64,000 nucleotides of DNA from the IMG/VR virus record IMGVR_UViG_3300019487_000021. The stretch is one strand, 5' to 3'. Shown piece by piece: positions 2,650 through 41,361 of the stretch. A program made the position numbers and the translations under genes. Below the pieces are notes generated by a model, which worked only from the letters and a program-made list of their open reading frames with translations, had not been told where the DNA came from and made no database searches. This DNA is from a virus (lineage: Duplodnaviria > Heunggongvirae > Uroviricota > Caudoviricetes). Each line of letters opens with the position of its first letter. Within the stretch, counting starts at the first letter, position 1.

Positions 2650-2990
2650 TGTTCCCAAGCAGTCACGCTCGGTCGAGGCAAGGCTGCTGTTAAGCAGCTA
2701 CTCCGTAGAGTTCCTCAACATTGTACGCAGAGTCGTTTGCGTTTAACGTTTTACGCTGATTACGTCAGTCGTCTCTCGCACTGTCCACTGGCCACTCGCA
2801 CGTCAATCAATTCCATTCACCCCCATAGGTGGTTCGTGTGTGAGCTTTGCTAGCATTTCTCACAATGGCAGTGTCTCACAACTGTTGTACCTCTGCCCTA
2901 GACTCAACTTATCATTCGAACCGTGTTGGTGGAGATGCCGAGATTCGAACTCGGGTCTTGTCCGCCTTGCAGCTGCTTCACACAGTGTTA
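2650..2990 (-). ncRNA. ssrA: tmRNA, circularly permuted (two-piece); tag ANDSAYNVEELYGVAA
   Basis: Acceptor piece with T-arm and CATCTCC-A-CCA ends at 2927, upstream of coding piece starting GGGGGTG at 2824 (G3:U70 pair); tag frame 2740-2690 ends in AA-stop. Confidence 0.9.
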
Positions 2991-14451: not shown

Positions 14452-15048
14452 TTAGTGTTTGCCCTTCAAGCCTGTTGGAGGGTTGTGTAGACGAGATGTC
14501 TGTGGTACACGAGCCAGCAAGAACTCCATCTGATGTGCGAGAATCTCGCGGTTCATCAGAATCAGGTGTTCAGCTCGGTTCGGTGCGTACGGCACGTACA
14601 GGAGTTTCATACCTGAATCTTCAGGTGTACGGTTGTCCTTCGCCTTGTTGCAACCACCACAAGACGTAACAGCGTTTGTCCACTTGTCTGGACCGCCCTT
14701 CGACCGTGGGTGGACGTGATCACGTGTAAGGTCCTGTTTGCGGAACAAACCGCCACAGTACGCGCACACGTTATGGTCACGACGGAACAGCGCAGCGTTC
14801 GTCAGCGTTGGGACACGATGGAGATGGTTTGCCTTTGTGTCACCGTCGACAGCGATGATCGTGTTGAGGTCCATGAACGAACGATCCCCTGTCTGACGCG
14901 ACTTGCCGCCGTAAATCGTGAAACCGTCATCGCCGATTGTCCACGCAACTAGTCCTTTTGCGTAGTAATACGCAGCGTCTTCGTACGTGATCCAGCGCAT
15001 TGGTTCGCCAGCTTTGTCGAGTTGCAGAATTTGTGGGTGTTCAGTCAT
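14452..15048 (-). CDS. HNH endonuclease
   Basis: 'CAYCGG', 'TRDHVHPRSKGG', 'NAVTSCGGCNKAK'. Confidence 0.9.
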   Translation of the reverse strand: MTEHPQILQLDKAGEPMRWITYEDAAYYYAKGLVAWTIGDDGFTIYGGKSRQTGDRSFMDLNTIIAVDGDTKANHLHRVPTLTNAALFRRDHNVCAYCGGLFRKQDLTRDHVHPRSKGGPDKWTNAVTSCGGCNKAKDNRTPEDSGMKLLYVPYAPNRAEHLILMNREILAHQMEFLLARVPQTSRLHNPPTGLKGKH

Positions 15049-15125: not shown

Positions 15126-15458
15126 TCAACCATGTTTTTCCTCCTGCAGTAACTGAAACTTACGCATTGGTTTACGTTCATCACCGTACAACGGTCGTGT
15201 TGCAATTGCAGTATGCCCAGTATTGTAGTCGGGCTCAAAGAACATTTCATGGTCGATTTGGTGACGGTTAAGATAGTCAGCAATCTTCAACAGATCGTGT
15301 TCACTCTTCGCGCCGATCAACACGATGAATGATGTCTCAGCTGGCTTTTGAAAGCGAAAACCAGCTTCCAAAGCTGCATGAGAGGCTTGCACAATCTGTT
15401 GCGGTGTGGACAAGTCCTGCCGCACGAAGATGTACGTGTAAGGTTTCGCCTAGGTCAT
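15126..15458 (-). CDS. Pth2-like peptidyl-tRNA hydrolase family protein with in-frame TAG at codon 3
   Basis: ATG ACC TAG GCG AAA...; 'YTYIFVRQDL...QIVQASHAA', 'HTAIATRPL'; ATG overlaps upstream TGA. Confidence 0.7.
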
Positions 15459-15808
15459 TTTGACACCTCCAGACCGATTTTGATGGCTGACCACATATCG
15501 TCTGGAATTGCATCGCCGTAACGATTACAGAACGCTTGAACGAACGAGCTTTTCGAATTTGACGCTCGTTGTTGGGCGATCCATTTCAGATCACTCATGG
15601 CTCGCGTGTAGCCTTGCCATGCGTCTTTGTAGTATGGGTCGATTTTACGCTCGTTTTTGAACGGCGAAAAGCCGTGTTTCAGATCCTTGGCGCGGAGAAG
15701 GTTGTAGAGAATATGGTCCTTCGCCGTCAACTGTTTCTGTCGAGCGATCTGTTTGTACGCTTCTTGGTACGTGTGAAACTTCTGTTTGTCTTGAAAAATG
15801 AACTTCAT
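15455..15808 (-). CDS. conserved-looking phage hypothetical protein
   Basis: ATG 15808 with AGGAG SD; 117 aa, 'HILYNLLR...GFSP'. Confidence 0.7.
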   Translation of the reverse strand: MKFIFQDKQKFHTYQEAYKQIARQKQLTAKDHILYNLLRAKDLKHGFSPFKNERKIDPYYKDAWQGYTRAMSDLKWIAQQRASNSKSSFVQAFCNRYGDAIPDDMWSAIKIGLEVSK

Positions 15809-15927
15809 TTGCAATCTCCTAATGTCATGGTTAAAGATGTGGAACCGAAACGACAAAGAGATTGCGGAGGATCGCGAGCGCGAACCTACGTGAAACCAGC
15901 TACCTATGCTTTCTTGACACGCTTCAT
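15805..15927 (-). promoter_or_regulatory. putative leader ORF with two amber codons and SD-sequestering hairpin
   Basis: MKRVKKA*VAGFT*VRARDPP...K(TGA); GCAATCTC (15865-15858) pairs with GAGATTGC (15818-15811). Confidence 0.6.
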
Positions 15928-16171
15928 TTGTTTCTCCAAAGTTAAGAACAACGAAACACTACTATATATGCATTCGACATTATGGTCAACTCAATGTGAT
16001 TCGAGTTCGACGATTCTTCGACTAAGAGTACGAACAACGGCCTCTATTCCATGACTTGTCGCTGTAACGGCACGGTTTGATTCATCTCATTTGTGAGACG
16101 TGAATACAAACTCCTGTTTGCTTCTTGGAGGACATTGAGTTCCACACGAAGTTTTTCTATTTCATTCATAA

Positions 16172-24033: not shown

Positions 24034-24112
24034 GCTCGAGTAGCTCAGTGGTTTCAGAGCGGCGGTCTCTAAAACCGAATCGGTCGGGGGTTCGAATCCC
24101 CCCTCGAGCACC
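24034..24112 (+). tRNA. tRNA with CTA anticodon (amber suppressor)
   Basis: GCTCGAG acceptor, GCTC/GAGC D-stem, loop CT-CTA-AA, GGGGG-TTCGAAT-CCCCC, ACCA; CATAAATA directly upstream. Confidence 0.85.
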
Positions 24113-24173
24113 AACACTAAGCGCTCAAGACTTGAAACAGACCTTTCACTTTTTACTAGACGGGAGTATTATC

Positions 24174-41286: not shown

Positions 41287-41361
41287 GGGAGCTTAGCTCA
41301 GCGGTAGAGCAACTCGTTTCACCGAGAAGGTCGTAGGTTTCAATCCCTACAGCTCCTACCA
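41287..41361 (+). pseudogene. degenerate tRNA-Val copy (6-nt anticodon loop)
   Basis: 3' end nearly identical to tRNA-Val 40816-40890. Confidence 0.6.

Follow-up and report, generated by a model that had tools for sequence, protein, structure and literature searches.

The 64,000 nucleotide (nt) stretch of DNA analysed here, referred to as the window, is a Caudoviricetes virus record (IMGVR_UViG_3300019487_000021) from a huge phage, and the element under study is a short leader upstream of a gene for a protein of 117 amino acids (aa). The leader element lies wholly on the minus strand. It is preceded by a Shine-Dalgarno (SD) sequence, is interrupted by two in-frame amber codons (TAG in the DNA, UAG in the mRNA), and reads MKRVKKA, TAG, VAGFT, TAG, VRARDPP, QSL...CK, with 19 codons past the Pro-Pro pair. 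An original prediction, made from the letters of the window alone, had described it as an attenuator which is opened only by ribosomes that pass both ambers. The coordinates and the reading of the leader, the GGAG sequence in front of it, both TAGs, and the overlap of its TGA with the ATG of the next gene were all borne out by the minus strand sequence. The positions of the features are collected in Table 1.

Table 1. Features of the leader, of the genes following it and of the suppressor transfer RNA (tRNA) in the window. ORF, open reading frame; MFE, minimum free energy structure.
Feature	Position	Strand	Details	Basis
Sigma70-like promoter	15961..15989	-	TTGACC (15989-15984), 17-nt spacer, TATAGT (15966-15961)	promoter-like match
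Leader SD	15934..15937	-	GGAG, 6 nt 5' of the leader ATG	sequence
Leader ORF	15805..15927	-	ATG 15927-15925; 40 codons with both TAGs read	TGA 15807-15805 overlaps ATG 15808
UAG no. 1	15904..15906	-	in frame, codon 8, followed by GUA	present in all 8 two-TAG lineages
UAG no. 2	15886..15888	-	in frame, codon 14, Gly-Phe-Thr before, GUU after	codon comparison
Putative arrest core	15865..15876	-	Arg-Asp-Pro-Pro, codons CGC GAT CCT CCG; Pro-Pro at 15870-15865	motif literature (PMC12992588, PMC10951233)
Hairpin 2	15868..15887	-	AGG (from UAG-G) paired to CCU, the first Pro codon; Val-Arg-Ala-Arg-Asp codons inside	RNAalifold and MFE of the window
Anti-SD strand (5') of the SD-sequestering helix	15850..15865	-	begins with base 3 of Pro codon no. 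2	complement ranking, RNAalifold
3' strand of the SD-sequestering helix	15811..15828	-	contains the SD of the next gene, GGAG (15819-15816)	folding, complement ranking
Regulated gene	15455..15808	-	encodes a helical protein of 117 aa from phage family P0001, which has no established name	family alignment
Pth2-like gene	15126..15458	-	starts ATG ACC TAG; ATG overlaps the upstream TGA; TAG at codon 3 (15452-15450)	
HNH endonuclease gene	14452-15048	-	follows the Pth2-like gene	
Promoter-like site of the HNH gene	15129-15101	-	TTGACT-17-TATTAT	
tRNA with anticodon CUA (amber suppressor)	24034..24113	+	presumed trans-acting input	tRNA prediction, Rfam

It had been claimed that directly after the Pro-Pro codons the leader forms a hairpin with the SD of the gene for the 117-aa protein. 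The pairing itself stood: GCAATCTCTT (15865-15856) is complementary to AGGAGATTGC (15820-15811), in which this SD is contained. The helix turned out to be longer than the 10 base pairs first described, however, covering with six further bases 16 nt on the 5' side (-19.9 kcal/mol), and a second conserved hairpin, hairpin 2 in Table 1, had to be added. When 191 upstream windows were ranked as complements to the SD segment, this helix came out on top (mean of all -6.2, standard deviation 3.3). Folding of the 171-nt leader region yielded a z of -2.3 as compared to shuffled sequences, with the SD helix being part of the MFE. The helix follows UAG no. 1 at a distance of 39 nt and UAG no. 2 at 21 nt. 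In the 21 codons of the window leader up to Pro-Pro no hydrophobic segment was found. Rfam searches at gathering thresholds yielded only tRNAs and a permuted transfer-messenger RNA (tmRNA) and no match in the leader, and a blastn comparison of the 1-kb leader region with GenBank phages gave no match.

Relatives were reached by way of the flanking genes, phosphoribosyl pyrophosphate (PRPP) synthetase and the Pth2-like gene, which led to a viral contig (L008) carrying the same leader. An alignment of the P0001 family, to which the 117-aa protein belongs, then yielded 24 protein clusters together with DNA from viral, metagenome, and Logan contigs; the metagenome scan with this alignment contributed four loci. 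With the 117-aa protein as the sole query no relative was detected in viral contigs and only near-identical strains elsewhere, a large protein set returning nothing but the query, and scans of viral contigs for the exact motifs returned the contig of L008 plus chance matches only. Two Logan contigs (L001 and L002) are 99.9% identical to the window region; their leader is unchanged and hence uninformative. This DNA was listed in two DNA runs from cave metagenomes and in no RNA run. This left 16 loci including the window, from about a dozen lineages whose P0001-family proteins are 20-45% identical (Table 2).

Table 2. Leader readings from start to Pro-Pro at the 16 loci, with in-frame stops given as (TAG).
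Locus	Class	Reading	After Pro-Pro
Window	two-TAG	MKRVKKA (TAG) VAGFT (TAG) VRARDPP	ORF continues
L008	two-TAG	MRRVKKI (TAG) IHSGFT (TAG) VRARDPP	ORF continues
L009	two-TAG	...VKRG (TAG) IRPFT (TAG) VCRPRIPP	TAA
L026	two-TAG	MFKDFNL (TAG) VSGFT (TAG) VHVRGPP	TAA
L027	two-TAG	VTSFNP (TAG) IFGFT (TAG) VHARGPP	TAA
L029	two-TAG	MKGTKL (TAG) VSGFT (TAG) VRSRAPP	TAA
L030	two-TAG	MDKKPRV (TAG) VSGFT (TAG) VQPRAPP	TAA
L031	two-TAG	MSIKLKV (TAG) IYGFT (TAG) VRARAPP	TAA
L011	one-TAG	MKKL (TAG) ILSARAPP	ORF continues
L035	one-TAG	MKKL (TAG) ILSARSPP	ORF continues
L012, L034	one-TAG	...M (TAG) VPFANGPP	ORF continues
L033	one-TAG	MFRAQL (TAG) IRQANGPP	ORF continues
L023	one-TAG	MTKL (TAG) IYCSQAPP	ORF continues
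L032	one-TAG	MS (TAG) IRPRSQAPP	TGA
L056	one-TAG	MAL (TAG) VLIRNVGPP	ORF continues

All 16 loci have in common a mini-ORF which is preceded by an SD and contains one in-frame TAG or two, an x-x-Pro-Pro motif five to seven codons past the last TAG, and an anti-SD strand. An SD-like site precedes the leader start in every relative, a promoter-like site of the form TTGACx-N17-TATAxT is found at the equivalent position in most of them, and each of the genome pieces scanned has a single copy of the element. Conservation of an RxPP motif, which the original prediction had named as a check, was found as RDPP (window, L008), RAPP (L011, L029, L030, L031), RGPP (L026, L027), RSPP (L035), and RIPP (L009), encoded by synonymous codons, and NGPP, QAPP, and VGPP occur as well. 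The frame taken by the leader after Pro-Pro varies among lineages. Leaders of this kind were found neither at the distant homologue L057 (G008) nor in the Yersinia phage g452 region nor in scans of the Serratia phage BF and RsoM2USA genomes.

A second check, conservation of the amber positions, was positive as well. Among 15 loci, the leader frame between start and Pro-Pro contains 23 TAG and neither TAA nor TGA, while in the same stretch the other two frames have TAG/TAA/TGA counts of 1/1/9 and 3/6/0. The codons behave as those of a translated sequence. The Pro-Pro pair is written CCT CCG, CCA CCC, CCG CCT, CCA CCG, CCC CCG, or CCT CCT, and the arginine at position -3 is encoded by CGC, CGT, AGA, or AGG. 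Gly-Phe-Thr in front of the second TAG is specified by GGT/GGA/GGC, TTC/TTT, and ACG/ACC/ACA, with third-position changes only in the lineages which keep it, and the valine after this TAG by GTT, GTG, or GTA. Between L011 and L035 the core shows five synonymous changes against a single amino acid replacement, and L008 has a 3-nt in-frame insertion between its two TAGs. As the codons past the TAGs vary synonymously, selection acts there at the level of the peptide, which indicates that ribosomes go past the TAGs and translate what follows. A canonical start with an SD downstream of the TAGs was not found in the leaders, and the economical reading of the alignment is that ribosomes read through the TAGs. 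Every TAG is directly followed by a purine. A purine 3' of UAG is a context favouring amber suppression.

The pairing with the SD is maintained in the same way. Complements to the SD segment were ranked over the upstream 190 nt at 15 loci, and at each of them the strand forming the helix came first of about 191 windows, with energies from -11 to -22 kcal/mol. Counted from the first base of Pro-Pro, the helix begins 4-6 nt downstream in 14 of the 15 loci and 4 nt upstream in the remaining one, L032. At least two Watson-Crick pair types are found at nine helix positions. RNAalifold applied to the eight two-TAG leaders recovered both the SD helix and hairpin 2, with compensatory changes at five pairs, which confirms the covariation that had been expected of the hairpin; applied to all 15 leaders it predicted nothing because the shifted helices had been misaligned by MAFFT. 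In hairpin 2, which is confined to the two-TAG leaders, the three outer pairs are invariant in all eight and the inner pairs show compensatory changes. On these comparative grounds the predicted SD helix is a real, covarying structure.

The presence of a tRNA with the anticodon CUA in a phage which otherwise uses TAG as a normal stop had been part of the original prediction as well, and both points hold for the window and its relatives. An orthologous tRNA-CUA occurs in all four records of relatives with a length of at least 65 kb (G001, G003, G004, G007). The tRNA-CUAs of the window and the relatives share 64-80% identity with one another but no more than 61% with those window tRNAs to which they were compared, and as their mutual identity exceeds that to other tRNAs they represent one conserved gene. 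The closest non-suppressor match found was tRNA-Lys(UUU) of RsoM2USA. An origin from tRNA-Trp was considered and is unsupported, with a discriminator A73 as compared to G in the phage tRNA-Trp and only 56% identity. ORFs of at least 100 aa cover 77-87% of these phages under code 11, and 7-23% of long ORFs are terminated by TAG (11 of 66 in the window, 22 of 95 in G001, and 12 of 168 in G007). The phages are not recoded genome-wide, and TAG is otherwise an ordinary stop. When the window was compared with G001 and G003, the Pth2-like gene was the sole conserved amber-containing ORF of at least 50 aa.

From these observations we infer which molecule reads the UAGs, that ribosomes arrest, and that expression rises. 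The leader is probably a translational on-switch reporting whether UAG is read as sense, with the phage tRNA-CUA as the most likely reader. In the mRNA made from the sigma70-like promoter, folding of the 5' region would trap the SD of the 117-aa gene in the 16-nt helix. Ribosomes which initiate on the leader would normally end at UAG no. 1 or no. 2, leaving the helix closed and the gene off. With charged phage tRNA-CUA present, some ribosomes would pass both UAGs and reach Arg-Asp-Pro-Pro. The 5' strand of the helix, whose first nucleotide is the last one of the A-site codon, would then lie inside the mRNA channel and be melted, which would set the SD free for other ribosomes. In a ribosome stalled at this position the first 10 nt of the helix would correspond to +5 to +14 from the P-site codon. 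As toeprints are obtained at about +16, the positions +5 to +14 fall within the mRNA channel, and a stalled ribosome would thus have to keep the SD helix open. A ribosome escaping the stall in the window leader, which runs on to the ATGA overlap, would also open the helix and could reinitiate. The Pth2-like gene would be coupled by a second ATGA overlap and would require read-through of a third UAG at its codon 3; with this third UAG in series, its output should climb steeply with suppression efficiency.

The arrest step of this mechanism borrows from work on known arrest peptides. RAPP and RGPP cause robust arrest which is not relieved by elongation factor P (EF-P), while RDPP and RSPP are partially permissive for arrest and are avoided in proteomes (PMC12992588). 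The proposed likeness of RDPP to the RAPP and RGPP arrest motifs is to be qualified accordingly. In seven lineages a stop codon directly follows Pro-Pro, which suggests a stall at Pro-Pro-stop there. Several points weigh against the mechanism as outlined. The motif of the window itself was only partially permissive in the mutagenesis of ApdA/ApdP (PMC12992588), and five lineages carry NGPP, QAPP, or VGPP and lack the arginine critical for arrest in ApdA/ApdP (PMC10951233). Given these motifs without arginine, true arrest may not be universal across the lineages. In the window, the ATGA overlap means that plain translational coupling without arrest would do. At the sixteenth locus (L056) a weaker helix is formed from the Pro codons themselves. 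At L035 (L035:1155-1280) a difference of 1 nt joins the leader past Pro-Pro in frame to the main ORF, so that ribosomes reading through and passing the motif would give an N-terminally extended protein. Finally, the 16 loci are kin by descent and do not represent 16 independent trials. The gating by UAG would hold with or without arrest, arrest being the less certain step, especially where the arginine is missing.

Other readings of the same anatomy have to be weighed against an on-switch driven by tRNA-CUA. What the leader reports is a competition of release factor 1 (RF1) and tRNA at UAG, and it is blind to which side moves. It is thus conceivable, though unlikely, that RF1 activity or the translation state of the host is sensed rather than the supply of tRNA-CUA, with the suppressor only assisting; depletion or blocking of RF1 during infection would then raise UAG read-through. 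Two UAGs in series would fit a sensor of the ratio of RF1 to tRNA, and sensing of this type has a precedent in the autoregulation of release factor 2 (RF2) by an in-frame UGA; the orthologous tRNA-CUA in every large related record is, however, a simpler input than RF1, and no RF1 inhibitor is known here, although no search aimed at one was made. Termination at UAG might also act chiefly via transcription, with uncoupling of ribosome and RNA polymerase leading to Rho termination, read-through preserving the coupling, and the anti-SD helix being secondary. A synthetic tna-leader switch with an inserted UAG works transcriptionally according to the account of Liu et al. 2011 in PMC6412442, and such an effect could add to a translational one. 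As the main mode of action it is very unlikely, since the conserved covarying feature is the SD-sequestering helix right at the Pro-Pro codons and the leader scan reported no terminator-like site.

Another view takes the UAGs as ordinary stops, with a peptide of 7 aa or none at all, and the remainder of the leader as a structured 5' untranslated region (UTR), such as a protein-binding site or an RNA thermometer, in which apparent conservation of the peptide reflects constraint on the RNA. The 99 nt before the ATG are indeed 96% identical between the window and L008, whose flanking genes are about 75% identical at the protein level, and hairpin 2 and the anti-SD helix constrain many bases. The synonymous variation of the Arg, Pro-Pro, Gly-Phe-Thr, and Val codons, the restriction of in-frame stops to TAG, the distance of five to seven codons from the last TAG to Pro-Pro, and the in-frame nature of the indels make this view highly improbable. 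As CCACCC and CCGCCT, which are not the anti-SD motif CCUCC, encode Pro-Pro as well, constraint on the RNA only is no sufficient explanation. Hardly credible, in turn, is a start of the downstream gene at TTG 15856, in frame with ATG 15808, by which the 3' half of the leader would become the N-terminus of its product. The frame of the gene is open upstream to 15958, and TTG 15856 aligns with ATG 1803 in L008, but no SD precedes 15856 and the TTG/ATG start is not kept in other lineages. The N-terminus of the P0001 family aligns from the methionine at 15808, which has a good SD.

The product of the regulated gene is all-helical in its predicted structure. It matches no Pfam family, and fold searches with its model (predicted local distance difference test, pLDDT, 81.5) revealed no known fold. 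The protein encoded next scores 21.3 bits against PF01981 in the window, where the curated cut-off is 23, and seven of eight relatives match this family, with a best E of 1.6e-6. Its top match among solved structures is a peptidyl-tRNA hydrolase (E 0.02), with Bit1 further down. The amber interruption of this gene, claimed in the original prediction, was confirmed: the early TAG is kept in seven of seven two-TAG-leader loci in which the gene adjoins and in none of six one-TAG-leader loci. G004, which is without the leader, has an early TAG in its Pth2-like gene too. The HNH gene, which follows the Pth2-like gene in the window and in most relatives, had been suggested as a further target of the leader. 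This found no support, the gene having a promoter-like site of its own. A peptide deformylase gene comes after the HNH gene in several relatives (L029, L030).

The early TAG of the Pth2-like gene is also present in cultured jumbo phages, with the beginning M T H TAG in Serratia phage BF, M S H TAG in Yersinia phage fHe-Yen9-04, and M L TAG in Ralstonia phage RsoM2USA. In all three the gene is unannotated (L089:680-1000, L090:680-1000, and L093:680-1021). ARAGORN detected a tRNA-CUA in BF and in RsoM2USA, and that of BF lies 3 kb from the Pth2-like gene. In the Xanthomonas phages XacN1 and Xoo-sp13 (L088, L092) the Pth2-like domain is located C-terminally in a protein of 280 aa and is without the early TAG; XacN1 has two tRNA-CUA genes despite this. 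The targets of the amber suppressors of XacN1 could not be found according to the paper on that phage (PMC5852040).

Why the genes following the leader should depend on suppression is a matter of guesswork, handling of by-products of read-through and feedback on suppression being two options. As a tentative proposal, which is more doubtful than the switch itself, the leader might form, together with the 117-aa protein and the Pth2-like enzyme with its early amber, a feedback circuit which measures and sets UAG suppression in the infected cell. Its three UAGs would give a steep response, and its products would either clear by-products of suppression, namely peptidyl-tRNAs from drop-off or read-through, or target the suppressor tRNA itself. 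If true, this would be a natural controller of the state of the genetic code in phages which keep TAG as a stop, and the 'orphan' amber suppressors found in jumbo phages with the standard code would be given targets of this kind.

The closest natural relatives of the phage leader are the arrest leaders of the RAPP/RGPP type, which include ApdA, ApdP, ApcA, SecM with RAGP, and the Streptomyces RAPP/RGPP upstream open reading frames (uORFs) (PMC7897499, PMC10951233, PMC10987492, PMC12992588). In both a small uORF lies directly 5' of the regulated gene, R-A/G/D/S-P-P occurs within it or at its end, and the ribosome binding site is hidden by a stem-loop which a ribosome stalled at the motif would cover. 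In contrast to these, the phage leader lacks a signal or membrane segment as well as any link to Sec or YidC, comprises only 12-28 codons up to Pro-Pro, and has the motif barred by one or two in-frame UAGs. It is moreover encoded by a phage, and in the window its motif is RDPP. In the ermC/ermB, cat, and cmlA leaders and the trp/his leaders the extent of leader translation chooses the RNA structure and particular codons are sensed, as would be the case in the phage. There, however, the codon sensed would be a stop decoded by a suppressor tRNA, in place of a sense codon or of a ribosome with a bound drug.

Closest in logic is the engineered switch with UAG in the tna leader (Liu, Qi, Yanofsky, Arkin 2011), in which, as presented in PMC6412442, downstream expression depends on suppression and serial UAGs cut leak; compared with the switch as presented there, the phage leader is natural and would work on an SD helix. 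With phages which recode stops by suppressor tRNAs (Borges et al., bioRxiv 10.1101/2021.08.26.457843; PMC13037316) it shares a tRNA-CUA that would tie UAG-containing genes to the translation state of the phage, but here recoding is not genome-wide and the UAGs concerned are confined to the regulatory leader and the beginning of a single gene. The autoregulation of RF2 (prfB) also uses a 5' in-frame stop to sense termination versus alternative decoding, by a +1 frameshift within the regulated gene, while the phage would rely on a leader separate from the regulated gene, in which read-through is combined with an arrest motif and an SD helix.

Searches of the literature yielded no natural leader gated by a stop codon. 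The comparisons support the classification of the element as a putative arrest-peptide SD switch with a stop-codon gate. Known sensors among the arrest leaders respond to protein export or to drugs, and here the same hardware is seemingly wired to stop-codon decoding. The targets of amber suppressors in standard-code jumbo phages thereby become testable; in this phage group these would be a regulatory leader and the first codons of the Pth2-like gene. The cultured phages BF and RsoM2USA, which have both the Pth2-like target and a tRNA-CUA, make the idea accessible at the bench. The leaders would moreover be compact natural parts for suppression-dependent expression, and their short RxPP peptides a set for arrest studies.

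Some further observations concern the plus strand of the window and the translation genes of these phages. Thirteen [CT]ATAAATA motifs, which resemble T4 late promoters, occur between 18736 and 55143 (+), mostly just upstream of genes. One of them ends 2 nt before the tRNA-CUA, and in the relatives the motif is not conserved upstream of the suppressor. At 41287-41361 (+) ARAGORN proposed a tRNA with an irregular two-base anticodon ('tc'), which has an Rfam tRNA score of 38 bits. The permuted tmRNA of the window is located at 2690-2987 (-) and scores 97 bits with Rfam. Permuted tmRNAs were also found in G002, G003, G007, and RsoM2USA, and with these genes the phages bring their own ribosome-rescue RNA.
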